From assembly GCA_965287045.1 (NCBI GenBank), contig OZ336885.1, positions 60,636,001-60,700,000 of the forward strand: a stretch of 64,000 nucleotides of DNA. Reading direction: 5' to 3'. The stretch's first letter is position 1; each line of letters starts with the position of its first letter. Origin of the DNA: Carcharhinus amblyrhynchos. Its lineage: Eukaryota. Positions 4,505 to 63,844 of the stretch are shown here, piece after piece. The position numbers and the translations under genes are program-made. Under the pieces are notes generated by a model that did not search any database, was not told the DNA's origin, and saw only the letters and a list, made by a program, of their open reading frames with translations.

Positions 4505-4531
4505 CTTTATCTTTTCTGCCCAACTTTAGTT
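4505..4531 (-). CDS. 27-nt micro-exon, (E)LKLGRKDK
   Basis: ttattaaatacag|AACTAAAGTTGGGCAGAAAAGATAAAG|gtaaga; open only in phase 1. Confidence 0.7.
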
Positions 4532-5115
4532 CTGTATTTAATAAATGCGCCATATTCGCGTCATTACAGTTGCATAATTACACTGGTACTGATGATGACT
4601 CCGGAACAAACATGCGGTCTTTACATGCATATCAAATTACTGTATTCGTCTAGGCTGTGGTTAACTTCTGAGTTAAATCACACTTTTGTTGAAGTTTGTA
4701 TAACGCAGATCATGGGAGTGAGGCTCCATGAAGATTGCATAAGGTTGATAATACGACATAACACTGATACAGCCAAGCAATTTGAACTTTCTTGTTATTT
4801 GAAAACAGAGTATAACTCTATGTTAGCCACGTAAATTACAGAATGAATGCAATCATCATATAACAGAAAATGAGTCGGGTTCCATAGAATTTTCAGAAAA
4901 GAGAAAAAGCATCTATGTTCAATCCCTGATTAATGCAATTTTTAAAGATAGCGTGGGGGAAGTGGAAGCTATTATTAATTAGTAGAGTTGGAAATTCAAA
5001 TATATTTATTGATGGTGGTGCCGTTCTTGTTGTGCAATATGCTTTCGCTTGCCTTCTGCATGGAAAAAAAGACGGTCAATATATAGTGTGCAACAGAATG
5101 ATAGGAAAACGCAAG

Positions 5116-5116
<1 letters not shown>

Positions 5117-5190
<74 letters not shown>
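5117..5190 (+). repeat. (AC)37 microsatellite
   Basis: Perfect dinucleotide run. Confidence 0.98.
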
Positions 5191-5194
<4 letters not shown>

Positions 5195-5199
5195 ATACA

Positions 5200-5700
5200 G
5201 GTATTTGAAGGAAGGTGCCCTTCCAACCGTCATCTCTTCCATTACATATATGACGTTGGACTCAACTTCAAATTCTTCCCTGCTGCATAACTCAAAATGA
5301 TACCTATTTCAATCTTAAACGTATGCAATGGCCCAACCCTCAATGATTCCTGTGGTGGAGAAATCCGAAAACTAATGACCCTTCTAGAGAAAATAATTAT
5401 CTCCGAATCTCTGACTTAAGTGTGAGCATGCTAATTTTGCAACTTTGTTCTGTAGCTCTATTACTCCATCACCATCACATGGAGAAATACCGCGTCATGT
5501 CCTTTCCAGTTCTTATACGTTGCAATAGGATCAACTCTCATCGTTCAGAACTTCAATGTGCCCAGAAATAATCTGCTCAATCACCCCTCATAGGTTAACT
5601 TCTTTATGCTAGCAATCAGTCCATCGAATCTAGTCTGAACAGATTGTGCCGCTTCTTAAGCGTGGAGACCAATACTAAATCTGTCAAGTAGTTTACTTAA
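5200..5700 (-). mobile_element. Old CR1 3' fragment
   Basis: Degenerate similarity to the CR1 3' ends elsewhere in the window. Confidence 0.6.
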
Positions 5701-6246
5701 CGTGATTGGACATGGGTTCCAGGATATGGTTAAAAGAATCTAGTTTCATTTATATGGCGTTTTGGAAACACCACAGATAGATTATTGCATTGAGTTCGGT
5801 TTAAACTTTCAAAGAAGCATAATCTTGCTTCTATTGTGATACAGATAAATTTCAGGAGATTGATTTCGGATTTGAAAAAGCATCCAGTGAGAATAAGTGG
5901 GATGAATACGTTCTGGGTCCATTGCAACAGGCGTGAATATCTTTGTGCCCAGACTTGGTATACACTTTTATGAGAAATTATGATCTCCAACTCTAGCAAT
6001 GATGAACCTCAGAATGAGGCAAGTAAATTGAATTGTAGAAGATTTAATTTTGTTTCATGACGAACCAGGTCTCTGGCGCTGCATTTTCTGGTCAGTGATT
6101 CTAATAATACGTTCTTGTGTTCACTTTAAAGACCTCTATTCTATTCCGTTTAAATTGTGACTGTGGGTTCGGCAAGCAGGGACGAATGCCGAAGAAGGTG
6201 TTTGTTTCCTACAATTCCCGATTAGCATCATCGCTGTCTACCTTAC

Positions 6247-6293
6247 CTCGGACGCTTAGGATTGGTTTCCCTCGCTCAGCCCTTTCATCCTTT
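6247..6293 (-). CDS. 47-nt exon; open in phase 2 to 1 (KDERAERGKPILSVR) or a frameshifted 48-nt phase-1 exon
   Basis: ccacatatag acceptor, gag|gtaagg donor; DNA resembles tgaaaggcttgcgagaaa near 37500-37517. Confidence 0.4.
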
Positions 6294-6375
6294 CTATATG
6301 TGGTTAAAAATAAATACATTTTCATCATATGTCAAAACTTGGCCCTTACTTTAGTGGAGAAAATATATTTAATTC

Positions 6376-7560
6376 CATAAGGCCATAAGAAATTGAAACA
6401 ACAGTAGACCAGTTGGACTCTCGAGCCTGATCTACCTTTCTTTGAGATTACGGTTGAAAACATTCCTCACGGACACTTCCCTGTTCTTTTCCCGTAACTG
6501 TTGGCTCCCATCCTGATAAAACATCTATATATCTCAGCCTTAAACATATGCATAGATTGTACCCCTATAGCTCTCTGTAGCAAGGATATCCAAAGACTCA
6601 CCATCCTCAGAGAAGAAATTTATCCTCAGTGTTAAATTTGCACCCCTGTATTCAGAGTCTCTGCCTTCTGGTCCTAGATTCTTGATGAAGAGAAACAGCC
6701 TCTCAGCATTTACTCTGTCCAGCCCCTTAAGAATTTCATATATTTCAATCAGATAACTTCTAATTCCAGGGAGTAGAGTGCCAATTTATCTTTGCTCATA
6801 GAACAACGCCTCCATACCGGGGATTATCGTAGTGAACCTACTCTGAACTTTCTCTAATTAAATAACATATTTCCTTAAATAAGAGGACCAAAACTGCTCA
6901 CAGTGATCTCGATGTGATCTCACCAGTACCTTGTAAAGTTGTAGCAAGACTTGCAAAATCTGATACTTCAATCTCCCTTGAAGTAAGGACCAACATTCTA
7001 GTAGCATTTGATTACCTGCTGCAGCTGCCTGTTAGCTTTCTGTGTTTCATGCATAATTGTCCCAAAGTTGTGTTGCAGCTTCTGGCAATTTGTCTCCATT
7101 CATATAGTAATGTGTCTTTCGTTCTCTCTTCCAAACAGAGCAATTTTACATTTTGCAATATTTTACTCCATTTGTCAATACTTTGCCCATTTTGTCAACT
7201 TACCCAAATCTCTTTTCAAACTGCTTCTATCCCTCTGGTACTTGCCTTTTCACGTACTTTTGAGTAACCTGGAAATCTGGCTTCTGTACATGTGCTTCCT
7301 TCTTGCAATTTATTCACATATCTTTGTAAGCAGTTGCGGTACCAACACTTATTCGAATTGGCACACCACTCGCTACAGATAGCCATCGTAATATATGAGC
7401 CTTGATTTCCATTCGATGTTTCTTGCCCATTTGGAATTATCTATCTACGCCGGTACACTATCTTGAACACCACAGGCTCTTATCTGATGAATTCACCTTT
7501 GTGAGTTAACTTTGGAGCGCCTTTGGAATTCCAAATATGCATTTTCAACTTCTTTATGCC
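6376..7560 (-). mobile_element. CR1 LINE RT/3' fragment
   Basis: Tail ccataaggccataag, QFWS-like segment gaccaaaactgc, typical CR1 3' ORF2. Confidence 0.8.
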
Positions 7561-7792
7561 ATCTACTCATGTTGAAACTTCATCGAACAAAATGCCAATA
7601 CATGACCGTGTTCAGTCTTAACACATAGAGATAACGGGAGGGCGGAATGGTAGAAACAGCGAACAATACCACATATGTTGTTAATGGATGGCGCATAAAA
7701 GTTCGGGGAGAATGAATGTGTTTCAAAAGATTGCGGCAACGATCCACAAACACACTGAAATAATCAATATTTTGAGAGATTGTCGTTTACAC

Positions 7793-7832
7793 CTTAGGGT
7801 GTTCTCATGGTTTCTTGTGGAAGCCATTTTCT
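7793..7832 (-). CDS. Candidate 40-nt exon, phase 1 to 2, (E)KMASTRNHENTL
   Basis: ctcctgaaacag acceptor, weak donor gtgtaa; frame-compatible with 6247-6293. Confidence 0.3.
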
Positions 7833-8029
7833 CTGTTTCAGGAGATTCAATGCTCTTATAATTACGCCAACAGTTTTGACATTCCGTCTAGTTGGGGTCT
7901 TTAATGATCGTGTAATTTAGAAGATACCAAATTATTATGTCAAATCATATTTAGCTGGGCGGAGTCTATGAACTGCAGCCAACTGGACTACCTTCATTTT
8001 AAACGGAAGATTTATGTGATCGTATCCAA

Positions 8030-9010
8030 CAGTAATACTCAGAGTTGGCTGAGAAGGGGAAGTGACATTCACGTCACACACGTGCCAGGCATGAAATCAC
8101 CCGTTTCTTCCAGAGAGATTCCAAGCATATCCTTATGACATTCAATTAAACAAGTTTCGTTGGATCCGCTAATATTGCCGGCCACGCGGTTTTCATTGAC
8201 CAGCGTTGATCATGGATCAGCGATGGAAACACTGCGGCTATTCGAACAGGTTCGCGGTTGAGAAATCCAAGGCCGTTAAGTCAGCTCCTTGCTCCCCAAA
8301 GGCTGCGTGCAATCTTCAGAAAAATGCTAGAAAATTTCAATAGGTCTGGCAGCAACTGTGGAAAGGGAGTAGAGACAACATTTCGAGTCTAAATGGCCCT
8401 TGATGCTATCAGACATGCTGCGATTTTCCAGCATTTTTCGGTTTTTGTTTCAGATTCAAACATCAGTACTACTTTGCGTTTATCCGCGCATAATCTACAT
8501 TGTCAGGCGTCAGAAACTACACAATGCACTTGGCTGGATAAATTCAGTTTCAAAAACTGTAAATAACCCTTTCACCATTCAGGACAATTCAAAAGCCTGA
8601 TTGGCAAGGCAACGACCATAATAAATGTTGACTCCGACCCACACTGGCGCGCGGTGGATACAGTTTATACGATCTCCATGATACACTGCAGCAACTCGCC
8701 ATGTCTCCTTCGCCAGCACTTACCAATGCCGGCAAGTCTGCCAGGAGCACCCGATGTAGGTTAACAACAGCACATTTAGGTTACCTTAAAAAATCAGACC
8801 ATCTTGAATACTTTGGGAATACTTTGCCGTTGCTTTGCTCTCGCAGAGTCAAAATTCTGGAACTGCCTTCTACTAGCACTGCGAATGTAGATGGACCACA
8901 TCGATCTGAGCGGATCCAGGAGCGCACTGATGGCCACATTGTCAAGAACAATTAGGGAATTGCAATGAATGAATGACCTGCTAGTGAAGTGTACATTCAG
9001 TAAAAATTAA
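8030..9010 (+). mobile_element. Old CR1/L2-type LINE 3' fragment, interrupted
   Basis: gtgacattcacgtcacacacgtgccaggc and gtcaaaattctggaactgcc segments; related copy at 20400-20800 (-). Confidence 0.55.
8320..8480. mobile_element. Inverted (palindromic) Penelope-derived short element
   Basis: aaaaatgctagaaaat...attttccagcattttt arms; same family as 61885-62103 and 33820-33962. Confidence 0.6.
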
Positions 9011-9086
9011 ATAAAAACATCAATCATTGTTTAAAATGTATCCTTCATTTTAAGAACGGTGACACGAGCAGAATATTTTTAATCAC

Positions 9087-9122
9087 CTTTATCTGAGCAA
9101 ATTCCCTTCAGAGTTTCCAGTT
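9087..9122 (-). CDS. 36-nt micro-exon, (E)LETLKGICSDK
   Basis: ttccgtttgtttcag|AACTGGAAACTCTGAAGGGAATTTGCTCAGATAAAG|gtgatt. Confidence 0.75.
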
Positions 9123-10198
9123 CTGAAACAAACGGAAGCAGGTTGAAGTGTCAACTAAAAATGAAATACAGGGCAACTGCACGTTTCTGAAATAACACAG
9201 GGACATATAAGAGGAACAGGGACGTAAGTTAAGCATTCTGCCTGATAGCATAGCGGATTTGCGGCAGGGTTCCAAACATCCATTGTAGCCCACCCATTTA
9301 AAAAACTATGGTTGCAAAACATCTATAATATCAGTTTTAAAACAAATAGTTGATAATTCGTTAATTGTGTTTGTAAACTGGAACCAGAAACGTTTGCCAC
9401 CACTTTAATGCCTAAGTGTTTCCTAATGGCAGTCTTGCATGGTTGGCTCCACAATATTTAGCGTGGATTTCATGCATAAATTCTCCAACTAACTGGTTAT
9501 TTTTATTAACGACTTATCATACTAAAATCTTAGCGCAAATCATTGTTAACCTTCTCAATTGAAGTGGGTGCGTTCAATCCGGGGATCGTGTCCATATTAC
9601 GTTAATGGGTTCACAATGGGTCCATGTTGCGTTCTTTAACGTCTGGTCACAGAGTGAGAAAAAAAGACGATCCAATGTTAGGAATGAGAGGATAGTAGAA
9701 AGCTGAGAGTGGAAATAAACGAGCAGATATAATGGAACACACGAATTTGATTATGTTCTCAGATTCCACAGGCTGCATTGCAAATCTAACGGCAAGACCC
9801 CAGATGAAAGTTGGGTAATTTAAAAATCTGTTCAGAAAGTTAGATCTGGCATTAGCAGAAGTGATTGTAAAAAGTATTCTGCTCATGGGAAGGGAAGCTG
9901 CAAGTCTTAACAGTTTGTAATTATGAAACTATGCTCAGTTCCAACCATGATGCCTGCGATTCATCTGAAGTTATTTTTCATGTTGCTAAGTGGTAACAAA
10001 AATAAAACACGAGACACAAGTCGCAGGAAAGGAATAGAATAGACAATAAATGTCCACGTTTACAGCAACACTTAATCTCATATTAATTTTCTAATGGATT
10101 TCACACGTGGTTGTAAGTGACACTTATGAATAATATCTCCTGGGGATCAATGACCAAATAGCGTCCTTTGCCGCTGTACATAACTTTTTGACTCTTAC

Positions 10199-10370
10199 CC
10201 CACTCCTTGAAATCATGCTTTATTGATCACTCCATCATTTGATTTGCATTAGTCAGCAGTGACATGACTACCCTATTTGTTACTAGGCAGAATTCGTCTG
10301 GATGCCTAATCCCTTCAGTGAAATTCAGGGAAAAGGCAGGTAATATCAAGTTCATGAGTGTCCACACGGC
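10199..10370 (-). pseudogene. Degenerate linker-type exon (172 nt)
   Basis: cactttacag acceptor, gtaaga donor; internal stops; DNA similarity to exons at 63220, 22875 and 16471. Confidence 0.45.
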
Positions 10371-10779
10371 CTGTAAAGTGGGTTAAACAGATTTTGCACA
10401 ACAAAAGTACACAATGGTGTGTTTGGCATCCATGGTAGATTACATACCAGATTAAGACACACCATATTTAACTGCATCCAAATATGGTCCCATTTAAAGA
10501 TTATAAACCAAGAGCTGAATTGAAGAGATGAGCTTAAAGCATTTACAATAATCAGGGAAAGATTACTGGGAAAATCTTTGAACAAAAATCTAACGGTTTC
10601 CAGATTCTGCTCAACTCCTTGTTATATATGTTGGAGAGAGAGCTGTTGCAATGAGTAATACATTTGTACCGTTATTTCAACACACTATGAGATTGCAATA
10701 CAGCGAATGCACGTTCCATTGAAGGGAGGGAGGACACAGAAACCACAGATTCAGAAGATTGCAGCATGGCACCCAAAGA

Positions 10780-11990
10780 AAATCCCAAAGCAATCCCGAA
10801 GAGCCAACGTGGGTTTGTGAAAGGAAAATCATACTTGCTTAGTTTATTAGGTTTTGTTTATTAGGAAGTAACAAGCAACGTGTACCTGTTAGTTGTGGTT
10901 TATGTGAAGGTGCGGGAGGCATTTCATAAGGTGCAAGACAACATAGAAGCTCATGATTTCGGTGTAACACACCAGCATCTAAAGAACATTGATTAGCTAA
11001 TAGGAAACGGAGAGAAGGCATAAATGGGGCATTTTCTGTTTACTAATTTGCTAAAAATTTATTTGCACGAAAATGAATGCTGGGGCCTTAACTGTTTGTA
11101 ATCTATATCCAACTTGGATGGAAGGATAGAATGTTTCGCTGCTAGATGTGTTGAGGAAGTAACTTTAAAAGAGACCAAAATGAGTTTGCAAAGTGAAACA
11201 GCGAGGTAAGTGAATGGGTAATTTTTAAATGTTGTAATGATATCATGGGGAAAATCTGAATTTGTCCACGATGGCAGAGATAATAGAAAAACAGTAAGGG
11301 ATTTAATGGAGACAGATTGCAGAACTCTGTGTTACAGAGGAAGCTGAGTGTCCTAGCATTCTAATCAAAAGTCTCGAATATATGCAGTTAGAGCAAACGG
11401 ATAGTAAGTGAAATGAAATGTCAATGGGAGTGATAGAAAATCAGGGCTGTTTATGTTCTCATGTTCAGATGTTACCATGTTCTTACAATTAACGGCAGGT
11501 TCACGGGGTTGTGGAGAGACGGCATCCTAGCAATGTTGTGCAGCTTGTGTTTGCTAATTTACGGCAGGACGTAGTTGCATTTGACGCCACTCATTTGATA
11601 AATCCCTGGATCAGTGATTTATCTTATTGGGGAAGAAAGTTTAGGCTTGAGTTCGTATCATGAACGTTTGAAAACATAGAAACATGTCAGGTCCGGAGGG
11701 AAGAATGCTTCCCCCTTGTCGCAGAAACTGGAATGAGGGGTGGCAGTTTAATAATAATGGGTCACGGCGATGGGTGGGGGTTCAGTCTCTCACGGGTCCT
11801 GGATCTATAGAATTCTGTTCCTCAGAGAGCTTTGGAAGCAGGGTTACTGAACATATTCAATGAAGAAGCAGATAGGGTTTTCATTCAAAAAAAGTGAAAC
11901 TGGATAGTGTGTATACAGCAAAATGGAGTTGAAGCAAAAATCCAATCAGCCATCATCTTATCAAAATGGATAGCAAATTCAGCGGTTCAA
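10780..11990 (+). mobile_element. Old CR1 LINE RT/3' fragment
   Basis: Degenerate GFVKGKSCL region through 3' UTR aatcagccatcatcttat. Confidence 0.8.
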
Positions 11991-12370
11991 ATGTATAAAG
12001 ACGAAGCATATAATTATGATGATAATATTTAATTATCACAAACGTACTGAACAGACTGATACCATGGAGTTAGCAAATACAATTACATGAAAATAAAAGT
12101 TCTATGCCTGGCTCCATGATCCACGCGGCACTCTTATCAAAAATGCCGATTCTCTTAACATTACCTTATTTTAATTTTCATGTTCATTTAATTAAGTGTC
12201 ATCAACTCATCTGTACAATTTCAGGTAGCTTCGTTGCAATGTTTTACACATGTCAGTAACTCCTTAATTAAAAACAAACGTTTATCCTAAATTCGTTCTA
12301 AGATTTACAAAGATCTGTTTTGTATTTTTTTGCCAAAAAATGCACCCTACCTCAGGTAGAGACATCTTAC

Positions 12371-12460
12371 TGGTATCAATCCACCCACAACCTTCCGCAG
12401 CACAGTATACATCCATTAAACTATTGGAGATCCTTGCCTTGCAAGATTCAAATAGAACTG
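12371..12460 (-). CDS. Open 90-nt phase-1 linker-type exon, (A)VLFESCKARISNSLMDVYCAAEGCGWIDT
   Basis: ggttttag acceptor, a|gtaaga donor, symmetric phase 1; ISNSLMDV resembles ISNDLLAV. Confidence 0.5.
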
Positions 12461-13219
12461 CTAAAACCACCTGATTCGTTGTAATTTTTTCGTTTTGTTA
12501 CTAATCTTAATATGTAATATTATTTTCAAGGCCCTGCAGTGACCATATATACTTTTATTTGTATCAGTGAAAAGAACACATGCAAGCACAATAAGAGGTG
12601 ATCATTGCACGCACGTGGAAAAAAAAACTGTGCTAAAAATAAAGATGTATAATAACATAGCCACATTTACCATTCATGTGATTTCGCAGAGCGGCCTCTA
12701 ATTGAATTATAAAGAAAAATGCAATGACATCAAAAAGGCACAGGTATGAACAAAGTAAAACTCAGCATAGATGCCTTTACAATTTGTCAACATAATTTCA
12801 CATACGAAATACACAAACGGGTAACTGTAAATTCAATTGGTAGTTTCCAACGCATTATTAATATATATCAACTCCTAATGTCAGTGATAATAAGATTTCT
12901 GTGCTCCAAGAAATTCTTGTTTTTTTTACCCATCTCCACTTACCCTGTTTCAACCTCCACATCTAAAGGTCCCGAAAGAAAACAAAAAAAGATCCACCTC
13001 GACACTGCCAGTGGTCATTAAGCTGTTCCCAAGGAGCATAACATGTTTAAGAGATAGGATCAGGTGAATTCTGGTAAACAATTTAACCAGATAGCAATTG
13101 TTCTCAACTCAAATTTCACTTGTTTGATTACATAGAGTAAGTGCAACATTTCTTTTATTTGGCAGCAATATAGAGATCATGTTTTATTCTAGCTGTGGTT
13201 GCCCAACTATAGGACTAAC

Positions 13220-13255
13220 CCGCATCTTGCAAACTCGTCTTCAAAGCGTGGATAT
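13220..13255 (-). CDS. 36-nt micro-exon, (D)IHALKTSLQDA
   Basis: ttatttaattacag|ATATCCACGCTTTGAAGACGAGTTTGCAAGATGCGG|gttagt; close paralog of 20096-20131. Confidence 0.8.
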
Positions 13256-14098
13256 CTGTAATTAAATAACAAAAGTCTCAGAAGTATTTAGTGATCTATT
13301 ATTCCTCACTCTGTCTTACGCCTCCAGCTAGATATGGATAATTTGGAGTTCTGGGGCGGTGCCCTCGTCGACTTTGCACCTTGCCCAACTTTACATTTCT
13401 ATAGACTTAAAAGAGAAAAGAACGTGTTGAAAGAAGCATGTAAGCTTACGACACCAACTGAAATAATCACATGAATAAAAAAAAGGCCATTTGCAACAAG
13501 CAGATGATGGAGATGGCAGGGAGATGCTTATATTGATAAAGGAGTTTGGATGCTTAAAACGGTTATCAAGTGCTGCGAATGGAGAACTATTGCAAAGTAA
13601 TCCTCAGTGTACTAAAAATTCCTCTGACAACCTATTTGGTATTGTCAGTCGCACGCACAGTACAGCGTCTTCGCGTATACAGGAATTGGCTTATACTCGT
13701 ACACAGGGCGATATTATTTGCAGATAGAAATAAAGTATGCATTTTGCGGCTGTTTTCGCGGAACAAAATAATTGATAATCATTTGCTATTTCGTTCTTCA
13801 GGAGATAATTCTTTCACTAAATAGCATTAAATTGCCTAGTTTAAGTTTTCAAATAATTATTGATAATTAACTGTCAGCAACTATTGTTCCGAATTTCATA
13901 GCAATGTATGCAGCAACTCGTATCAGACTGTAAACCAATCAGCACTTCGTCTGGTACCGTGGGAAGTCATTGTTTCCCCTGGTATTCATGCGATTGTCCA
14001 GTTAATTGCAAGACACAAAGGTTCGACAAAATGTAATTTTTTTCTAAAATACACAGGAAGAAGATTAATATCTCAACACTAAAATCAACCCCCCACAA

Positions 14099-17605: not shown

Positions 17606-17609
17606 CTTA

Positions 17610-19149: not shown

Positions 19150-19152
<3 letters not shown>

Positions 19153-54693: not shown

Positions 54694-54749
54694 ATCAATG
54701 CAACAGAAGTTGCGATCTGACCAGTAATGACATTATTGCAAGAGAAACA

Positions 54750-55065
54750 GGAGTGGTACTTTGGCAGAGAGGTTAGCACTGTTGCCTCACAGTGCAGCGG
54801 ACCCGGATTTGATTCCCGTTTTGGGTAACTGTCTGCCTGGAGTTTGCACATTCTCCCCGTATCTTCGTAAGTTTCCTCCGGGTGCTCTGTTTCCTCTCAT
54901 AGTCCAAAGATTTGTGGGTTAGTGGACTGGCCATGCTAAATTGTCCCTTTACTTAAAGGGACTATCTAGGGTAAACACATGGGATTATGTGGATATGGTG
55001 GGATTGTGGTCAGTGCAGACTCGATGGACCAAATGGCCTTCTTCTGCACTGTAGGATTCTATAAT
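54750..55065 (+). mobile_element. HE1-type SINE
   Basis: ggttagcactgttgcctcacag head, tail ctgcactgtaggattctat. Confidence 0.9.
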
Positions 55066-55129
55066 TCAATGAAGGGCGGGGAGGGGGGGAGGCGGTAGTG
55101 AGTGCAAAAAACTTACTCCTACTCTTTAT

Positions 55130-55760
55130 TTCTGTGTACTTTAGTACGTATATTATGGATGTTAATCTTGGTGCAGCATTTGGGAGCATGATTGGTGTTG
55201 GGGCAGGAGTGGGTGGTGTATATGCACATAAGTTACTAGAAGTGGAAGGATAATGCAGTCATGAAGGCTTTGTTGCAAAGTGGCTTATTGAATTGAGACA
55301 ATGGAGTACAGAGCAAAATATTTATGTTCAACCTGACAAAACACACATTTGTCTGTGATTTTTTCCCAAAATTTTGTGCACCAGACAGTATGAAAGATTT
55401 GGAGGCCGTGAAAAATTATGGAGAGAAGTGTTCATGAGGCATGAGGATCTTGACTGAATGGGTGAGCCGAAATTGAATTCATAATTACAAATTATGAAGA
55501 ACCTGTATAAGAGTTATAGGGAAGTCAGTCGTTAGCAGAACAATCGACAAGTGGAGAGCACAGATTTAAGCTATTTGTCAAAATAAGTTATTGCGATGTG
55601 AATAAAAAATAGTTAAGCAGAACATCATTAGCACCTGGAATGCCCTAACTGAGGCTATCGTGGAGGCAAACTTAATCAACATACTCAAAAAAAAAATGGA
55701 TACCTGCCTAAGAATGCAAGAGCTTAGTTGAATTGTTCCTTCATAGGAGCGAAATAAGCA
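55130..55760 (+). mobile_element. Old CR1 3' fragment
   Basis: Degenerate similarity (ctggaatgccctaactgagg) to CR1 3' ORF2. Confidence 0.55.
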
Positions 55761-56007
55761 TTCGGGACTCATCGCCTGGTTTTCTTTTGTAGGAAGATAG
55801 TTTTGAGCCAAACTCAGACATAAAGTGTGTTGCGAAATACTGGAGTTGTGAAGTTCAAATAACATCCAAATATTCAGCACTCTACAGGACAATGCCGCAA
55901 CCTGGCTTTGCCCCTTTTACAGAAACTCGATTGTGGTTCCTTCCAAATGCGGCTCACCAGTTCTGGAGCCGAATTCAATTCAACTGATGCTTGGCAGCGA
56001 CTATAAC

Positions 56008-56043
56008 AGGCTTACTCGAGAACTAATCTCAAATTTCCGACCT
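56008..56043 (-). pseudogene. 36-nt micro-exon with an in-frame stop, (E)VGNLRLVLE*A
   Basis: gtcatag|AGGTCGGAAATTTGAGATTAGTTCTCGAGTAAGCCT|gttata; resembles EVVRLKELLEES. Confidence 0.45.
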
Positions 56044-56115
56044 CTATGACCGAGCTGTGATAATAGCCGATTTGTTTGGTACACAAGCACCTCAACTTTT
56101 CGTCCCAAGCCTTAC

Positions 56116-56310
56116 ACTATCCTCACTTGAAAGTATCTCCGTTGTATATTCGTCAGAGTTGCGTTTAACTCCTGAAACTGCCAGTAAATCATTGCTGATT
56201 ATGTGCCTTCGATGCACAGATTCCACTGTTGAATCACACGATGCATCAAAAATATCACAACGGCAATCGGCCATGACATTGGTCACAGACAATTTCAGCG
56301 ACCCCCTAAG
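56116..56310 (-). CDS. Open 195-nt linker-type exon (LRGSLK...DSTVESVHRR...ISNDLLAVSGV...TTEILSSEDS)
   Basis: gtttcaccag acceptor, gtaagg donor, 65 open codons; motifs shared with exons at 16471, 12371, 31124 and 2987. Confidence 0.55.
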
Positions 56311-56670
56311 CTGGTGAAACACTGATAATATTATGCTAAACATCCAAGTTCTTAGTGTGGTCTGCAGATGACCGGATAAATATTGACCTTGGTAGAATTT
56401 TCCTTCATTTGTTTTAACTATATCCTTTGCATATTTTTTCGTATATGGGCGGAAGTCGACATGCATAGGGTTCCTGAGTCATTTGATTTTTGTTTGTTTC
56501 CTGTCTAGTGTCAGGATCATAAGAGTATCCCGATTATTGGCTGGCATTCACACACTTTTGACGCAAACTAATTGGAGCTCTAGAGTGTTATCTGTTGCAG
56601 ACGTTACTCGCTATTAAAATTTTGAGCTCATTGACAACATTGGAAGTAGTTACTTGTTGAACATAATTAC

Positions 56671-56706
56671 CTGATTCTTCCAACAATTCCTTCAGCCTTA
56701 CCACCT
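56671..56706 (-). CDS. 36-nt micro-exon, (E)VVRLKELLEES
   Basis: ctatttattttcag|AGGTGGTAAGGCTGAAGGAATTGTTGGAAGAATCAG|gtaatt. Confidence 0.75.
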
Positions 56707-57379
56707 CTGAAAATAAATAGTATGTTAATTCACGACTTGTTTTCATTTCAGATTCTTTGCTGTGCACTTGGGAGCTCAGATTATTTTTATCCGATCAATT
56801 TAAATCACGATATAGTCATTCTGACATTTCTACCGAGAAGGCTAAATAGTCGTGTTCAATTTCTGTCCAGCTGTGCTGGTTATTGGATTATCTGGGCAGG
56901 TTACGTTAAAGTTTAAGACTGAACTTCATTGGGTAGATTTACCACATTGCAGGCGGCACACTTACGAAGTACAATGAGTAGATATTAGAAGTTGGTTTGT
57001 ACCCCCTAAACACAAGAATAATGATCGTACATTCGATTAGCCGATTTGAAGGTACCCAGGGGAACAGCTGGGGAGATGAATCTCCCATGTGTTTAATATG
57101 CAAATGCTATTGAACATAATTAGAGCCACAATGTTCAGATACTTTTAAGTTATTCATGGATTGTGAAAATCCTTTGATAAGCAAACAAATTTGGGGCATC
57201 CGTAATTGCTATTTGTACTCAATAGATAGTGATGAGCCGCCTGCCAATACTACTGAACTCCACGCAACTCAGGAACACAACTAATTTTGCCAGACAGGGG
57301 GCCCTAGAATTTTGACCCAGTGAGTAGTAGGCACTTCCGGTCAGAACAGTGCGTGAGTTGGAGAGGAATTGGCAGGTGA

Positions 57380-58800
57380 GTTGATTTGATTAGATTTGAT
57401 TTATTATTGTCACAGGTATTAGTAATACAGTGAAAATTATTGTTTCTTGCGTGCTATACAGGAAAAACGTAGCATTCATGGAGAAGGAAATGAGAAAATG
57501 CAGTTTGCTGTCTACAGTAATTGTTAGGGTGTAGGTAAAGGTCAACTTAATGTACGTCCATCCAAAAGTCTGATGGCAGCAGAAAATAAACTGTTCTTGA
57601 GTCCCTTGTTACGTGACCTCAGACATGTCTATGTTTCTCGCAATGGAAGGACGTGGAAGAAAGTATGCCCAAAGTGTGTGGGGTCCTTAATTATGCTGGC
57701 TGCTTTTCTGAGGTTGCAGCAAGTGTAGACATTGTCAGTGGATGGAAGGCTGCGTTGCATAACGGATTGGGTTGTATTCACGACCTTTTGTAGCTTCTTG
57801 CAGTCTTGGGTAGAGGAGAAGCCATACCAAGCTGTGATAGAACCAGAAAGAAAGCTTTCCATGGTGCATTTGTAAAAGTTGGTAAGTGGCGTAGCTGATG
57901 TGCCAAATTTCCTTAGCCTTTTGAGAAGGTAGAGGTGTTGGTGGGCGTTCTTAATTACAGTGTCGCCACTGGGGGGAACAGGACACTTAAAAACATGAAG
58001 CTCTCTATCATTTCAAATAATGGGGAGGCATGGTAGCACAGTGGTTAGCACTCTGCCTCACAGCACTAGGGACACAGATTCAATTCTTGCCTCGGTTCAC
58101 TGCCAGTTTGGAGTTTGTACATTTTCCTATGCCTGCGTGGGTGTCCTCCGGGTGCTCTGGTTTACTCCCAGAGTCCAAAGATATGTTGGTTAGGTTCGTT
58201 GCTCATGATGAATTGACTCTAGTATCAGGGATATGAGTGGGGTAAATATATGGGTTATGGGAATAATGCTTGAGTTGGATTGTGGCCGGTGCAATTTCGA
58301 TGGGGCGAATGATCATCTTCTGCACTTTAAGGGTTCTATAGATTTTATGGATTCCTACTTCATCCCCATTGATGCAGACTGGGGCATGTTCTCCACTACG
58401 CATCCTGAAGTTGATGACAATCTCTTTCCTTTTGTTGACATTGAGGCAGATATCTTTTTCATCGCAACAGTTCACTGGATTATCTATCTCATCCCTGTAC
58501 TCTGTTTGTCATTCTTTGAGATCCGACCCACTGTGGTGATGTCATCAGCAAACTTGAAAATCGAGTTGGACGGGAATTTGGCCACAGAGTCACACAAGTA
58601 TAGCAGGGACTGAGCACACCGCCTTGTGGGGCACAGGAGTTGAGGATGATCATGGAGGAGGTGTTGTTGCCTATCCTTACTGATTGTGGCCTGTGGATTA
58701 GGAAGTTCAGGATCCAGTCACGGTGGGAGATGCTGAGGCCATGGAGCTTGGAGATGAGTTTCGTAGTAATGATGTCATTGAAGGCAGAGCTGTAGTCACC
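57380..58800 (-). mobile_element. Rex1/Babar LINE, 5'-truncated, interrupted by a SINE
   Basis: DYSSAFN, APQGGVLSP, ESFLSGSITAWYG...KKLQKVV motifs; (atttg)n tail. Confidence 0.9.
58022..58350 (+). mobile_element. HE1-type SINE nested in Rex1 LINE
   Basis: ggcatggtagcacagtggttagcactctgcctcacagc head. Confidence 0.9.
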
Positions 58801-59880
58801 AGCTGTAGGTGCTGGTGCAGTAGGAGGCTCTTGCTCTTGCGTACCCACGTGAAATATTTCATGGATTTCAGAATCGCTGGCAAAGGAGGCTTAGCAAGTT
58901 AAAACAGTCAATCTAACATATGATCATGCAATAGACTTTGTGCATCCATACCGGTTTAAGTAAATTATAAGCCGGTGGATTGGGTGCAACTCATGCCGGC
59001 TGCATTGGCCTGAATGTCATCATGGTACATGGATAGGACACGACGGCGATAGGGCCTGGGTAGGATTGTTTTAATGCAAAGTAGATGGGTCGAATAGTCT
59101 TCTTCTACACTGTAGGGACGCTTTGGTTTTATGATTCTTTCTTTCGAGACTCCAAGCACACATTATACAGAGTTACACATTTCTTATCAGTAGTTCCCAG
59201 GCTTTGGCTGTTGCTTGGCGCATAAATACTTTTGACCAACAGTGTAGTTTTCTTGAAATGTTGCTAACAACTGTGTGAATGCAAATGTGTGACTTCGAGC
59301 AAAACATAATGAGTCTTCAGGGCAAGTTTGTTTACTTTAAAATCCGTGGACGTGAAATAGAAATGAAAATAAATGGGAGTGAAAATGGGGCACAGATGCA
59401 ATTTGTGATAATCAAAAAGAAAGTACGTGCAAAAAGATGTATCCTTATGCGAAGTGAATATAACTTACAAAAGGATTGCATATATTTGGGATTGTGACAG
59501 TAACCCCGAATGATTATGTTGGTATGGTATAAGTATTATTTTATTCTTTCCATGCATGTCTCTGCTCCTCCACATTTCTCTCCGTGTCTAAGACAGCCAT
59601 TAGTACCAGTCTATTGTCAAGGCTTCAAATTATCTCCGAGTCTTTTCCCTGTCAATGTAGTGTTTCTGGGCGATTCTTTGAAGTGCGTTGGATGCCATAC
59701 TACGCAACTGTGTTAAAGGTTTGTTTGTTGTTTCAGAAGGAAAGTTTAACTGTATTTTAACAGCATTATTTAGAATTCAATGTTGTCTTTGCTTAGTTAT
59801 GCCCAAGCAGATTTTACATTTATTTACACTGCAGAAAGTTGGTGAAGACGTAAATTGATCACGATGTATTTTGTCTTTAC

Positions 59881-59907
59881 CATTTTCCGTTTCCTCCAGC
59901 TCGGATG
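59881..59907 (-). CDS. 27-nt micro-exon, (A)SELEETEN
   Basis: tgtttcgtccacag|CATCCGAGCTGGAGGAAACGGAAAATG|gtaaag. Confidence 0.7.
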
Positions 59908-60576
59908 CTGTGGACGAAACACACGTTTAGGTGATTTTCAGTAACATTGAGAAAAGCAAAAGAAAAATACTGAGGCATTGCACAATGTTTTTTTGAAATT
60001 TGACCAGAAGAGCAGTTGAGATGCATGGAAAGCTCCTGTGAATTACATGAAAAATTAAAATGAAAAATGAATTTAAAGGAAATGGAAGAAACACACACCT
60101 AACATTTACATCCGAGGCTGTGTCTGCTGTTCAATTAGTAAGTCAGTTGTGACTCCGTTGAACAGACACGTCTAGGTTATCTCGGCAGTTTGCCACTTCT
60201 GGAGGCAATGCTGCCCTTTCGAAGTGCGTTGTTTCTTATGAATTTTTTTAATGAAGACTTGCATCTGTCCCTCGGATAGACGTTAAAATTATCGCATGAC
60301 GCCTGATAGAAGGGCATCATTTACGTTATTCATGATGCGATTTATATATTTAGACATCGATTAAAATCTATATAAAAAATCCTACTCTAGCTATCATGTT
60401 ACAATTGATACTTGACTGAAACTGGTCTTTGTAATTGATTACATTATAATGCCATTTCTCTAGGTTGCGCATTTCTTGAGGATTTGAAGAAAACCTGAGC
60501 TCTTTAGTTTTATATTAATTCGTATCCATCTTATAAATATAAATAATCTGATTGAAAAAATGTACAGAAAACTTAC

Positions 60577-60821
60577 AGCGCATTTTTGTTTGAAAGCCGA
60601 CATTTACGGAGGGCCGCTCAGGATCTCATGACGTCTCGAGCTCGCCACGGTAGCATATTTTGCGCAGCCGCTGCTGTGGTCGGAGAGCAAATGCTCCCAT
60701 CACAATTGCTCAAACACCAGCCATTCAATACCAAGTTTATTACCAAATATTATCAGGTGAGGAATCAATATTGGTGCATGGTACAGATGAATTTTCTCCT
60801 GGTTAAATTCCGAGAATGATG
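60577..60821 (-). pseudogene. Degenerate linker-type exon (245 nt)
   Basis: ctctcattag acceptor and gtaagt donor; stops in all frames; fragments GENSSV, DSSPDNI and EILS shared with other linker exons. Confidence 0.45.
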
Positions 60822-61402
60822 CTAATGAGAGGCAGTGACAGGCACTGCGTAAAACATGTGGTGGATAAAGTGCCGCAATTGTCAGACTACGACAACCGTC
60901 ATTTCTTGTAAGTTGAACAGACTTCGAATCAGAAAGTTTCAGCACTGTCCCTTACGGTTAGCGCTTGTTGTTTGGATCATCTAATTCTGCGTAGTTTAGC
61001 TTTCCGCTGATACATTGTAAAAAGTTCGACATTTCTGACAGAATTATTATTTTTTCCTCTGCCAAAGCCCCATTAAACTAGGACACAAGCTAACCGCTTT
61101 ATGAATAAAAAACAACCTCCCACAAATCTCAGCGCTTTATAACTTTATTGAGGGATATCTGCTGCCGGTGATACTCGGCAGTCACATGATCTTTGCATTT
61201 CAAAAATAGTTTTGCGATCCTTTCCGATCAGTTGACAAGGTCGTCGTGGTTCAAGTTTAAAGTTTCATTGAGACATAGCGAGCAGAATCATTCATTTTGC
61301 TTCTCTAATTCACTGGACTGAAATGTTGAATTGCCATTTAATATTTGGATTTGTAATTTAACACAATTCTTACTGAGTGAATGTAAGTTGAATTTCTTTT
61401 AC

Positions 61403-61429
61403 CTTTTTCTTCCACGGTCAAGACATTAT
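61403..61429 (-). pseudogene. Dead 27-nt micro-exon, xNVLTVEEK, acceptor AA instead of AG
   Basis: cccactcaa|ATAATGTCTTGACCGTGGAAGAAAAAG|gtaaaa; clear paralog of 63560-63586. Confidence 0.6.
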
Positions 61430-61884
61430 TTGAGTGGGATTCGATTTCTCGCAGTGTCCCATTTACAGGAGGTAATGTTACCCATTGACATGGAGGATAT
61501 GTTGGATTGGCCTCTCCAGAACGAGCACGGGAATGACGTTTTATTTTGATTGATGTCATTAGGAAAACAATTCGTCCAAGTACAATGAGACTAATAGTGA
61601 CTGCATCACAATAAATACCAGAAACACTGGTATTTGTATTTGGTATTTATTTCTGGTTTTACTAGAAATACCAGAAATACCAAATTGCAGCTCGCTCTTC
61701 CCAAACCAAAACCTCCACTGAATTATTGAAACGAGCAGTACTGACGCATTCCAAGTGGCATTAACAAATGTCGGTCTCTACTAAGTTACCAAAAAGTTAA
61801 ACGAGATAGCATCATATTGACGAACATGCAGTATCAAGTAACGTCTTATTGACGAACAAAGTAAAGCATAGCAATCATATAATA

Positions 61885-62103
61885 AAAGCAAATTACAGCT
61901 AGAATCTGAAACCAAACGAGAAAATGATGGAAAATCTCAGCAGACCTGGCACCAACTGTAAGGAGAGAAAATAGCTGAAGTTTGAGTCAGATGACAGTTC
62001 GTCAAAGCTGAAGGGATATCTGGACTCGAAACGTCAGCTCTTTTCTCTCCTTACAGATGCTGTCAGGCCTGCTCAGACTTTCCCGCATTTTTTTTCTTTT
62101 GGT
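61885..62103. mobile_element. Palindromic Penelope-derived short element
   Basis: ctgtaaggagagaaaatagctga versus tcagctcttttctctccttacag: arms are reverse complements centred near 62007. Confidence 0.8.
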
Positions 62104-62142
62104 TAAAGCAAGGATACAATAAACTGATACTTTATTACTTAC

Positions 62143-62169
62143 AGCCTTGTTCAGCACATCTCTTGAGTT
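62143..62169 (-). CDS. 27-nt micro-exon, (E)LKRCAEQG
   Basis: attattttag|AACTCAAGAGATGTGCTGAACAAGGCT|gtaagt. Confidence 0.7.
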
Positions 62170-62958
62170 CTAAAATAATTGTGTTCAATCAATAGTTAAG
62201 AATATTTATCTTATACTCTACTGAACGTGAGTTTGCGTGTACACCATTTATTAAATTGGACGAATGCTGACAGCTCACCCTGGTCATATTCCCATCACCG
62301 GGACGTCAAACTAAATTCAGAATTCGCAGTTCAAGACGGACTCTTTAATTTGTTCAATACCTTGTTATGGAGGTCTAGATTTATACATAATCGACACTAT
62401 AGATGGTCTACTTATCCGTCCGTCTGTCTACCCATCCAGCCATTCACCCATCGACCTAACTTTATCAGGGGGTTTTGTCTATTGTTTTATGATTCTCTAT
62501 ATGTCCTAATGGGAAATTTAGCTATCTGTTTGTCTGTGTAAATTTGGCCCTGTGTATTCTCTTATTAGAATATGTATATGCAAATGTACCTTTGTATAAG
62601 CACAAATCTGTTTAAAGCATTTACTTATTTGTGCTTCCGCATATATGAACATGCGAATTAGGATCACCAGCAGTTCACCCTGCTGCTAGAGGCTGTCGCG
62701 ACACTTAGGTTATTTCTAATCTGACTTTAACCTTCAAAAACACCAACTAATTATTCACCTTGCCTTAAAAATCTTCAAGTCCTCTAATTTAATTGTCTTT
62801 CTTCGAAGGAAGGAGACCGAAAGGTTAACTTCCATGCCGGAGAAAACAGCATCCCCTTGTCTGTGCCTTAAACGTTCGACCATTATGTTCACTGTTTTTA
62901 ATATCACACGGCATTCTCGCTTCTGCAGCTTTGATTATTTTATCTTATGCTGATATAC

Positions 62959-62993
62959 CTGCTTTCAGTTTTCTGTAGTATACCTTAAAATGT
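62959..62993 (-). pseudogene. 35-nt micro-exon, possibly a 36-nt unit with a 1-nt deletion
   Basis: actgcag|ACATTTTAAGGTATACTACAGAAAACTGAAAGCAG|gtatat; stop when read in phase 1. Confidence 0.35.
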
Positions 62994-63219
62994 CTGCAGT
63001 TGCATCTTTGCTTGTCTATTCCTTAAAATGTTTGATAAGTCACTGTAGCTACTCGTACGTTCTTGTCCTCAGCTGTGTCCTCTTTCAGAATTAAAATTCT
63101 AAACTTTGATGTGCAATGCCTTACTTCAAACTATTTGAAATTCAATCATATTGTGATCTGCATAACCCACTCTTGCATAGTTTCAACTGTTCCTTGGTTG
63201 GCTCTTGGATAGAATTTAC

Positions 63220-63340
63220 TATCAAATTATTCAGAGAGCACGCTACGAAATATTTTGTGAATGATGTTGCAAAATCATCCGAGTTGCTCAATATTTCAGG
63301 GACAGCACAGGGAATTCAACTGATGGTACAACATATACAA
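63220..63340 (-). pseudogene. Degenerate linker-type exon
   Basis: Strong acceptor tttatttttgtctttcgcag; stops in all frames; later frame gives PEILSNSDD (cf. EILSSEDS at 56116); DNA resembles the 10199-10370 exon. Confidence 0.4.
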
Positions 63341-63559
63341 CTGCGAAAGACAAAAATAAATTAAGCTTGCACAGATAAAACGATTGTAAGTATGTTCAGC
63401 AACAATTGTTCAGAAGCAAACTTAAAGAAAGCCAATAATAAAGAAATTATTACATGGATCATAAAACATGACATAACAGAAACAGAGAGAGCGTATCATT
63501 AATAGAACTACAACACTAGATACAGAGTAACAATCGCTGGTATGCCGTGCCACTCCTAC

Positions 63560-63586
63560 CTTTTTCTTTTTGAGACAAGGCATTAT
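63560..63586 (-). CDS. 27-nt micro-exon, (N/D)NALSQKEK
   Basis: cctttcctcctcggccag|ATAATGCCTTGTCTCAAAAAGAAAAAG|gtagga. Confidence 0.75.
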
Positions 63587-63808
63587 CTGGCCGAGGAGGA
63601 AAGGTCAACAGCAATTATTGTAGCAATTGAATGATTGATTTTTGGTCAAATTCGAAGGTTTTATTCAGTTGATCAACAGTAGTATAAATAAGTAATTGTG
63701 TTAAAATTTCTATGACAAGGAATTGCGCACAACTACTGCAGAGTATTTTGCACTGAATTGATGTCAATTATAGTTTGCATTTTCACATGGTATTCTCTGG
63801 GTGCTCAC

Positions 63809-63844
63809 TCTTTTCAGTAAGTGCGTCTTTCAAGGCAGAGCATT
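63809..63844 (-). CDS. 36-nt micro-exon, (E)CSALKDALTEK
   Basis: ttttctttcattacag|AATGCTCTGCCTTGAAAGACGCACTTACTGAAAAGA|gtgagc. Confidence 0.75.

Follow-up and report, generated by a model that had tools for sequence, protein, structure and literature searches.

A predicted long coiled-coil gene built of 27- and 36-nt micro-exons and ending in a B30.2 exon in Carcharhinus amblyrhynchos

The window, by which we mean the whole stretch of 64,000 nucleotides of Carcharhinus amblyrhynchos DNA that was analysed, is the middle part of a predicted gene of around 590 kb (586 kb), which we call gene A. The initial annotation had claimed an array of symmetric micro-exons spanning the window; this array is real and extends far past both window edges: its upper limit is position 398,835 in window numbering (G000:C16:61034835), and its lower limit lies 183,850 bases before the first position of the window. 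It consists of around 120-140 exons in phase 1, 27 or 36 nt long and nearly alternating, and the largest intron of the gene is 25.7 kb. Sequence statistics and the RefSeq models of other species lead us to infer that these segments are exons spliced together in one gene. Furthermore, when the flanks were searched for terminal domains, an intact B30.2 exon was found at the 3' end, 187 kb downstream of the window (Table 1).

Table 1. Gene A and its exons. Plain positions are those of the window.
Feature	Position	Strand	Basis or remark
Gene A body, contains whole window	1..64000	-	Both gene ends outside window
36-nt phase-1 micro-exon, 12 residues, hydrophobic at positions 2, 5, 9	63809..63844	-	Splice ends, paralogue-trained model, generic-plus-composition rule
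27-nt phase-1 micro-exon, Lys-type (L at 4, K at 7)	63560..63586	-	Both rules
27-nt candidate micro-exon, weakest in set	62143..62169	-	Acceptor -2.3; in neither rule's list
27-nt phase-1 micro-exon	59881..59907	-	Both rules
36-nt phase-1 micro-exon	56671..56706	-	Both rules
27-nt phase-1 micro-exon, Lys-type	45581..45607	-	Both rules
27-nt phase-1 micro-exon, Cys-ending class	43749..43775	-	Generic-plus-composition rule
27-nt phase-1 micro-exon	40866..40892	-	Both rules
36-nt phase-1 micro-exon	32681..32716	-	Both rules
18-nt phase-1 candidate, absent from initial annotation	31886..31903	-	Generic scan, both rules
27-nt phase-1 micro-exon	30745..30771	-	Generic-plus-composition rule
36-nt phase-1 micro-exon	28036..28071	-	Both rules
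27-nt phase-1 micro-exon	24581..24607	-	Both rules
36-nt phase-1 micro-exon	20096..20131	-	Both rules
27-nt phase-1 micro-exon, Lys-type	19468..19494	-	Both rules
36-nt phase-1 micro-exon	13220..13255	-	Both rules
27-nt candidate (weak), absent from initial annotation	12671..12697	-	Generic scan, generic-plus-composition rule
36-nt phase-1 micro-exon	9087..9122	-	Both rules
27-nt phase-1 micro-exon, Lys-type	4505..4531	-	Both rules
5'-most confident 36-nt exon of gene A, in-frame ATG inside	G000:C16:61034800-61034835	-	
Terminal B30.2/SPRY exon of gene A, intact, 174 codons	G000:C16:60448814-60449335	-	SPRY E 2.6e-15

All 17 segments of the initial annotation were verified on the minus strand, with AG/GT flanks and a phase-1 frame without stops, and the motif that it gave for the 36-mers was present in 7 of 7 once the junction codon was completed with G. 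In a generic scan of AG..GT segments (lengths 12-60, thresholds 0/1) the excess of 27 and 36 nt was confined to the minus strand of the window: there we found 10 segments of 27 nt and 7 of 36 nt, with 0-4 at all other lengths, against 1 and 0 respectively on the plus strand. These ten 27-mers are not exactly the ten annotated initially, among which 62143, 19468 and 4505 score weakly as generic acceptors. A splice model trained on a neighbouring paralogue alone recovered 7/7 of the 36-mers and 7/10 of the 27-mers (total score at least 5). The three that it misses are 43749, 30745 and 62143. The first two satisfy the generic-plus-composition rule, and the 43749 type has four further copies in gene A with the same A/GT donor; 62143, which fails both rules, is the least secure exon and was kept only because of its place in a 36-27-27-27 pattern, which is found again at 56671-40866. 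Two additional exons are likely, those at 31886 (18 nt) and at 12671 (27 nt, weak), the latter occupying the expected slot between two 36-mers. Two other candidates were discarded: a 21-nt AG..GT match at 54017-54037 is repeat-derived and sits within a LINE ORF, and 14555-14581 fails the generic-plus-composition rule.

The same strand bias was observed over the whole span of gene A when the model trained solely on the neighbouring paralogue was applied. By splice score alone, the minus strand gave 60 27-mers and 49 36-mers (109 in total) and the plus strand 6 and 2 (8 in total). Among the 109, stops occurred in 2 in the phase-1 frame, compared with 66 and 52 in the other frames. At two thresholds the candidates numbered 121 on the minus against 0 on the plus strand, and 133 against 6, and the union set showed no stop at any of its 142 junctions.

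Regarding the terminal exon, its B30.2 domain was modelled by AlphaFold with pLDDT 90 and matched the B30.2 of TRIM7 and BTN3A1 in Foldseek with a TM of about 0.75, so the C-terminal PRY-SPRY fold typical of TRIM proteins is present; an ESM Atlas search returned generic SPRY clusters only. Small in-phase heptad exons precede this one-exon B30.2, as in butyrophilins. Orthologous B30.2 domains were found in two sharks and a ray (71, 63 and 52%; clade support 99). In a quick, midpoint-rooted tree, whose rows were picked with the profile of the family itself, a branch with SH-aLRT 100 separated 18 family rows from 47 Ig-, RING- and other B30.2 rows, and the family was not nested among butyrophilin B30.2 domains. 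The B30.2 domains of the paralogues make up one clade, separate from butyrophilins and TRIMs.

The exon lengths fit a coiled coil. A 36 + 27 nt pair encodes 12 + 9 = 21 residues, exactly three heptads, and among 42 such units positions 2, 9 and 16 were L/I/V/M/F in 93, 86 and 81% (position 5 in 79%). The genomic order of the exons had a power of 44.3 at a period of 3.5 residues, compared with 20.4 +/- 4.0 in exon-order shuffles, and 0 of 200 shuffles reached it. Adjacent 36-36 pairs were seen 6 times where 19.9 were expected (minimum 11 in 5000 shuffles), and 73 of 101 exon neighbours alternate (shuffle mean 50.6, maximum 66). A single exon, of 9 or 12 residues, keeps the reading frame and loses the heptad register. 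The idea that the Cys-ending 27-mers are 36-mers minus three codons, a built-in stutter, was borne out in part only: in the strict catalogue, 13 27-mers have a 36-mer-like pattern, 10 of them following a Lys-type exon and only 3 preceding one.

For residues 10-80 of the ray orthologue, structure prediction gave a parallel homodimer in register, scoring 0.53 where the best control had 0.12; at least 98% of contacts were shared between runs, and pLDDT was at least 85. This mark is reached by 21/30 solved pairs and 0/23 single chains, in eukaryotes by 17/29 pairs and 0/30 single chains, and in animals by 7/16. The score may nevertheless reflect likeness to solved coiled coils, because only 1/7 animal pairs without an older solved relative reach the mark. 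Single-sequence AlphaFold of the ray protein gave a mean pLDDT of 42.8, with helices at 16-73. The proposal of a coiled-coil gene hidden from an ORF view is supported, in a cartilaginous fish and with kinship to butyrophilin/BG tails.

We consider it probable that the exons of gene A are spliced constitutively, or nearly so, into a cytoplasmic, parallel, two-stranded coiled-coil rod whose length arose by block duplication and which carries two C-terminal B30.2 heads. The rod would comprise about 1,250-1,450 residues and, at the coiled-coil rise of 0.15 nm per residue, would measure around 200 nm, acting as a spacer and dimeriser. The two PRY-SPRY domains are likely target-binding heads; held in register by the rod, they would bind a putative protein target avidly, and the rod would keep that target tethered some way off, possibly on the cytoskeleton, as is reported for the chicken BG 'zipper protein' tail. 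Rod length is likely fixed in the genome by tandem duplication of register-keeping exon blocks, and three 27-mers in a row may add stutters or hinges.

Growth by exon amplification, as initially put forward, holds for neighbouring paralogue gene B, where 20 exon pairs have alignable intron flanks (69-95%) and are block duplications, but in gene A none with alignable flanks was found; amplification there is extrapolated from gene B. In the duplicated gene B exons non-synonymous changes are nearly as frequent as synonymous ones, at 0.156 against 0.207 for old pairs and 0.051 against 0.045 for young ones (59 changes overall), which suggests that the rod sequence is weakly constrained.

The second mode that had been put forward, free combinatorial splicing, is not supported as the main principle. 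Gene A might be a diversity generator like the schistosome MEGs, in which skipping yields many rod variants and variation is the purpose: every exon is symmetric in phase 1, 159 of the 171 possible skip junctions among the 19 window exons are free of stops, and isoforms of relatives vary by internal blocks of 9, 6 and 7 aa. We regard this as unlikely, since genomic order holds the heptad register better than all 200 shuffles, as well as keeping the alternation; block duplication therefore accounts better for the length of the rod. Furthermore, the RefSeq isoforms differ by just one or two blocks: in 10 isoform comparisons the internal differences were four 9-aa blocks, of which one occurred twice, a 6-aa block and a 7-aa block. 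Because of these mostly 9-aa differences, some single-exon skipping probably occurs. The register is not always kept in isoforms lacking single 9-aa blocks, and in the rod proposed here occasional skipping would merely trim or kink it.

The 5' end bears on whether the protein is membrane-anchored. No Ig domain was found among 91 minus-strand frames of at least 65 aa in the 49-kb gap upstream of gene A, where the sole Pfam match was the SPRY of gene B. Searches by tblastn with 165 proteins, 17 of them with an Ig motif, gave no Ig match, although IgV and IgC were recovered in a control locus by this type of search, and PF22705 had 0/35 matches on contig C16. RING/B-box gave no Pfam match in the gap, no match to 48 RING-motif proteins, and was absent in 7/7 relatives scanned. 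Of three open candidates in the gap that could be spliced, one is TM-like; it lengthens the first micro-exon on its 5' side and may be intron read-through. A six-frame comparison of the 5' regions of gene A and genes B/C had repeat matches among the matches listed. In the B/C gap a Pfam scan of 127 of 256 frames (at least 80 aa, five long ones omitted as presumed LINE) gave one reverse-transcriptase match and nothing else.

A butyrophilin/BG-like protein with a short hydrophobic N-terminal anchor instead of Ig domains, its B30.2 heads reaching around 200 nm into the cytosol, would fit some of these data. Only 1 of 250 catalogued exons, the 5'-most of gene A, has a Met-initiated in-frame upstream stretch with a 19-residue hydropathy of at least 2.0 (2.35, against 2.67 in a true butyrophilin TM control); the models of two relatives start hydrophobic (1.59 and 1.48), and BTN3A1 is the best PDB sequence match of the family profile. 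However, this is a post hoc observation, and the stretch, rich in T and G, includes an Arg and crosses the exon's own strong acceptor. Genes B, C and the C9 gene have no such stretch at any of their three 5'-most candidates tested, 5 of 7 relatives' models are hydrophilic at the start, and no Ig exon was found. We therefore judge an anchor improbable.

It is less probable still that genes A and B form a single 1.75-Mb transcription unit, in which the B30.2 of gene B is an alternative last exon whose skipping would continue the rod through the exons of gene A to the other head. Strand and phase are the same throughout, only 49 kb separate the B30.2 exon of gene B from the first exon of gene A, and neither a distinct N-terminal domain nor a clear promoter was found there (the promoter signal of a CpG scan was not above the gene-body rate). 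Against this, the gap is about twice the largest intron of gene A, the ATG within the first exon has a good context, and paralogues lying head-to-head and tail-to-tail nearby show that the genes are separable. Finally, that the array is a decaying, unexpressed relic or a set of chance splice-like motifs is very hard to believe: the weak amino-acid constraint in duplicated rod exons would agree with it, but in-frame stops are nearly lacking, the exon excess is strand-specific and the B30.2 exon is intact with orthologues in three species.

Gene A is not alone. Six paralogues occupy around 6 Mb of this contig and two more lie elsewhere. Sharks and rays have orthologues, and a chimaera has relatives; the genes of the family span 0.6-1.1 Mb. 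Gene B has well over 140 micro-exons, with a run of about 13 of 21 nt, three such being present in a sample of another paralogue. These at least eight genes likely form an undescribed cartilaginous-fish family. The closest proteins are chondrichthyan, and the label of an unidentified gene stands insofar as a literature search found no description of the family; nevertheless, relatives are represented in RefSeq by models that are mostly short and carry borrowed names. XP_069797409 ('zinc-binding protein A33-like'), XP_038672306 ('TRIM39-like'), XP_042192744 ('nuclear-pore anchor-like'), XP_042191566 ('TRIM58'), GCB75680 and GCC29430 fall in the B30.2 clade. The RefSeq/GenBank models share with gene A a coiled-coil-like N-terminus and isoforms differing by 9-aa blocks; they differ in their automatic names, taken from other families, and in length, most having 172-460 aa. 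Only the chimaera model (1697 aa) nears the predicted length of gene A, and no database protein spans its full rod, the ray model having 289 aa. A search for long relatives by shared words passed 0 of 355 candidates, which is weak evidence. By eye, the N-terminus of the ray model shows the same 9/12-residue pattern, and the micro-exons of the C9 paralogue resemble, in order, peptides of its catshark RefSeq orthologue; individual matches of terminal gene A exons to the ray model are weak (best BLOSUM scores 6-21).

Among known systems, the shark's own classical butyrophilin is alike in that a pair of 27-nt phase-1 exons separates its TM from a B30.2 encoded by one exon, and the B30.2 fold of butyrophilins matches too. 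Gene A differs in that no IgV/IgC exon and no secure TM exon were found, and in having 120-140 small exons in 36/27-nt pairs rather than a few, and a B30.2 in a separate clade. TRIM-B30.2 proteins (TRIM7, TRIM21, TRIM39, finTRIMs) likewise present C-terminal PRY-SPRY heads on a coiled-coil dimer, which is antiparallel; the rod of gene A is predicted to be parallel, is about ten times longer and micro-exon-encoded, and RING/B-box was not found. Schistosome MEGs are short secreted proteins diversified by skipping. Gene A resembles them in that small symmetric exons make up the bulk of its coding sequence (about 1,250-1,440 of 1,450-1,600 predicted residues); in gene A the heptad register constrains exon order, and no homology is expected. 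Chicken BG has IgV and TM, a long coiled-coil tail from a variable number of tiny in-phase, alternatively spliced exons (13-36 of 21 or 24 nt) and a last 3'UTR exon without B30.2, and the tail of the zipper protein regulates actin-myosin in the brush border (PMC4046983). Many tiny in-phase exons, including the 21-nt exons of paralogue B, are shared; gene A stands apart in its three-heptad unit split 12 + 9, in having around four times as many exons and a B30.2 end, and in that no Ig was found.

The family likely derived from the cytoplasmic half, heptad exons plus B30.2, of a butyrophilin/TRIM-type ancestor. More tentatively, and with considerable doubt, it may be an old, overlooked cartilaginous-fish family of megabase-scale genes, taking up about 6 Mb of one chromosome here, whose 21-, 27- and 36-nt exons, hundreds in number, encode tethers of at least 200 nm, each with its own conserved B30.2 head. 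Rod length and hinges would be tuned ruler-like by duplicating and splicing register-keeping blocks; some members may have a membrane anchor, or may belong to a common transcription unit in which B30.2 exons serve as alternative last exons. The one-to-one shark/ray orthologues suggest a stable function for each head.

The finding exposes a blind spot of annotation: megabases resembling repeat-filled intron hide very large genes, which gene finders detect through the last exon alone and name after unrelated proteins. The butyrophilin/BG principle of building heptads exon by exon is here carried to an extreme, with 120-140 micro-exons in one gene. The family therefore offers a test bed for vertebrate splicing of long micro-exon runs across kilobase introns, and for the evolution of coiled-coil length by exon-block duplication under register constraint, and its origin is relevant to the early evolution of butyrophilins and TRIMs in jawed vertebrates.

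The window occupies positions 60636001-60700000 of contig C16 in a genome of 2.92 Gb. We examined 1.26 Mb of sequence around the window and micro-exons of the same type go on both upstream and downstream of it. On the downstream side the array ends, 187 kb from the window, with an intact exon of 174 codons that encodes a SPRY domain (Pfam, E 2.6e-15), so that the search of the flanks for terminal domains proposed in the initial annotation does give a B30.2 (PRY-SPRY) head. Above its upstream limit there is a gap of 49 kb and then a second related B30.2 exon, which has a separate micro-exon array above it (Table). Since the array is bounded by its own B30.2 exon below and by the gap above, the window is the middle of one gene of 586 kb, gene A. 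The observation is real, and it is bigger and better defined than had been described.

Regarding the window itself, all 17 micro-exons listed initially were recovered with their coordinates, minus strand, AG and GT borders and open phase-1 frame, although the one at 62143 is weak. A generic splice scan (AG..GT segments of 12-60 nt, weighted by vertebrate frequencies) gave ten 27-mers and seven 36-mers on the minus strand, where every other length gives 0-4, versus one 27-mer and zero 36-mers on the plus strand. Two candidate exons can be added. The longest ORF of the window (443 aa) is presumably a LINE-like reverse-transcriptase frame; it is intronic, bears no relation to the micro-exons, and many copies resembling it are found throughout the region.

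The acceptor, donor and peptide models were trained on gene B only, the related gene upstream, and then applied to gene A. Using the splice signals alone, without a frame filter, the minus strand of the gene A span yielded 60 27-mers and 49 36-mers, versus 6 and 2 for the plus strand, while the remaining lengths of 20-45 nt gave 1-15; thus the suspected strand-specific excess of these two lengths does exist. Of these 109 segments only 2 contain a stop in the phase-1 frame, versus 66 and 52 in the two other frames. A generic-plus-composition rule gave 121 vs 0 and 133 vs 6 candidates at two thresholds. The union of the rules comprises 143 exons (about 1,440 residues), a few of them probably false; its 142 junctions are free of stops and its introns have a median length of 2.9 kb. 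A stricter catalogue holds 125 exons and one junction stop.

A 36-nt plus a 27-nt exon encode 21 residues, that is, three heptads. In 42 such units L, I, V, M or F occupies positions 2, 9 and 16 in 93, 86 and 81% of cases and position 5 in 79%, Ala is frequent at position 12, and Lys is found at position 19 in 25. The hydrophobic power at period 3.5 was 44.3 in the genomic order versus 20.4 +/- 4.0 when exon order was shuffled (none of 200 shuffles attained 44.3) and 11.2 when residues were shuffled. Moreover, neighbouring 36-36 pairs were observed 6 times where 19.9 were expected. Therefore, the exon order is constrained, and combinatorial splicing, which the initial annotation had considered, is not borne out as the main principle: the genomic order keeps the period better than 200 of 200 shuffles, and skipping a single exon preserves the frame but displaces the register. 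Nevertheless, internal differences between the RefSeq isoforms of relatives comprise four blocks of 9 aa besides blocks of 6 aa and 7 aa, which fits the skipping of single exons of 27, 18 and 21 nt provided that the models are RNA-based. RefSeq models of this kind usually rest on RNA.

The other suggestion, exon amplification, stands for gene B, whereas in gene A we found no exon pairs with alignable intron flanks. Gene B spans about 1.1 Mb (one stretch of it was sampled, not contiguous), and 615 contiguous kb gave 116 exons vs 3 controls. It contains 20 exon pairs with alignable intron flanks (69-95%), due to block duplications, among them a tandem block of 27 kb in which about 11 exons were copied with a flank identity of 87-95%. 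This duplication also copies an exon pair about 60 nt apart. In the duplicated pairs the exons are more similar than the flanks (85 vs 75% and 95 vs 91%), and non-synonymous and synonymous changes occur at about equal frequency, counted on few sites. About 13 exons of 21 nt, each a single heptad, lie near the 5' end of gene B and three more in one sample of another paralogue; these runs resemble those of chicken BG. An intron of gene B harbours, in antisense, what we take to be a retrovirus-like element, its pol-, integrase- and env-like frames being named from motifs.

Gene B (minus strand) and gene C, a plus-strand paralogue, are arranged head to head. Their starts are separated by about 35-65 kb in which no domain exon was found; a common promoter is possible. 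In total there are at least six related B30.2 exons on OZ336885.1 (C16; 60.45-66.44 Mb) and at least two on a second contig, C9, a lower bound as scoring covered 150 of about 340 candidates. Six of them align to that of gene A with 34-40% identity. Among 15 samples of 10 kb from 63.05-66.43 Mb, 12 had clear micro-exons, always on the strand that the nearest B30.2 exon would predict; of the others, one had a weak candidate and two had none. The C9 region also holds many classical PRY-SPRY and butyrophilin IgC matches, and classical PRY-SPRY exons are greatly expanded on contigs C9, C41, C46, C53 and C73 (all 150 candidates scored, of 373, exceeded the Pfam cut-off).

Features of the micro-exon/B30.2 loci (bare five-digit positions are in window numbering)
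Feature	Location	Strand
Added candidate exon, 18 nt	31886	
Added candidate exon, 27 nt	12671	
LINE-like frame	53120-54451	+
Gene A terminal exon	C16:60448814-60449335	-
Upstream limit of gene A array	C16:61034835	-
Second related B30.2 exon	C16:61084230	
Gene B tandem block	C16:about 61,131,800-61,184,700	-
Gene B sampled stretch	C16:61.7-62.0 Mb	-
Retrovirus-like element	C16:61940001-61950000	+
21-nt exon run, gene B	C16:62055955-62100040	-
Starts of genes B and C	C16:62,153,000-62,218,000	-/+
21-nt exons, other paralogue	C16:65000091-65004057	-
Second family group	C9:103.95-106.49 Mb	-
B30.2 exons of second group	C9:103955186; C9:106383658	-
Exons without assigned B30.2 head	C9:105.81 Mb; C9:106.28 Mb	-

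At the 5' end, the Ig domain for which the initial annotation proposed to look was not found. In the 49-kb gap none of 90 frames of at least 65 aa matched a Pfam family (the 91st is the SPRY exon of gene B), tblastn with 165 proteins, of which 17 carry an Ig and 48 a RING motif, gave LINE fragments only, and none of the 35 genome matches to the butyrophilin IgC family is on C16. As a control, a classical butyrophilin on C53 showed its IgV (348 nt), IgC (282) and TM (120) exons, and two 27-nt phase-1 exons precede its B30.2. The first 36-nt exon of gene A contains an in-frame ATG and, alone among 250 exons, is preceded by an in-frame extension that starts with Met and is strongly hydrophobic; this extension may be either intron read-through or a membrane anchor.

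Orthologues of the gene A head occur in Scyliorhinus torazame (71%), Chiloscyllium punctatum (63%) and Narcine bancroftii (52%), and a quick tree built on 65 rows groups them with it (support 99; midpoint root, isoform duplicates and one fragment excluded). The tree separates 18 family rows from 47 rows of butyrophilin, TRIM and other B30.2 domains with an SH-aLRT of 100, a split favoured by picking the rows with the family's own profile. When 1.84 billion proteins were searched with a profile, the top ranks by single-domain score went to sequences of catshark, skate, ray, basking shark and chimaera and to two Logan clusters. The relatives bear names borrowed from other families, and most of them have 172-460 aa (a chimaera one, 'nuclear-pore anchor-like', has 1697 aa), and none of seven scanned had Ig, RING or B-box domains. 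Full-text searches found no paper on the family, which supplements of shark genome papers or subscription journals could mention. Passages of PMC4046983 describe BG tails made of 13-36 exons, each 21 or 24 nt long, and butyrophilins with a few heptads plus B30.2; according to passages of PMC12841164, butyrophilins are present across jawed vertebrates, and those of squamates retain IgV, IgC, TM and B30.2 while heptad number varies. By defining domains, the gene A family is outside the butyrophilin, BG and TRIM families, and its design is a new variant of their coiled-coil-plus-B30.2 plan.

The ray orthologue has the same rod pattern, and its residues 10-80 are predicted to form an in-register parallel homodimer (score 0.53 vs 0.12 for the best control; contacts agreeing in at least 98% between runs, pLDDT at least 85). 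The mark applied was attained by 21/30 solved pairs and by none of 23 single chains, in eukaryotes by 17/29 and 0/30, in animals by 7/16 pairs, and by 1/7 pairs with no older solved relative; because of these rates the pass may reflect resemblance to solved coiled coils. The head is likewise predicted to have a B30.2 fold: the AlphaFold model (48-row alignment, pLDDT 90) matched in Foldseek the B30.2 of TRIM7, TRIM15, BTN3A1 and TRIM21 (TM 0.73-0.81, 24-32% identity), and BTN3A1 was the best of the PDB sequences for the family profile (E 1.5e-32). The B30.2 domains of the family have in common a Trp-Asn motif and, after it, a longer loop and an Arg-x-x-Gly motif; these are partly missing in the classical butyrophilin and are a candidate family-specific binding surface.

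The exon array, the heptad code, the terminal B30.2 exon, the upstream gap free of Ig and RING, and the family with its orthology are established at the level of genomic sequence, and we regard the architecture as very probably correct. Micro-exons and B30.2 exon would be spliced to one mRNA with a coding length of about 4.5 kb, whose product would present two B30.2 heads on a rod of about 200 nm, with rod length set through block duplication. The cellular role is the most speculative part of this mechanism. The nearest functional precedent is the BG zipper protein, whose heptad-exon tail regulates actin-myosin in passages of PMC4046983; by this analogy a cytoskeletal role is conceivable, if rather unlikely. 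We consider it probable that the gene A product is a soluble parallel tether. Because orthology was kept from shark to ray and the rod is loosely constrained, we favour a spacer or tether whose head has a conserved target over a fast-changing pathogen sensor.
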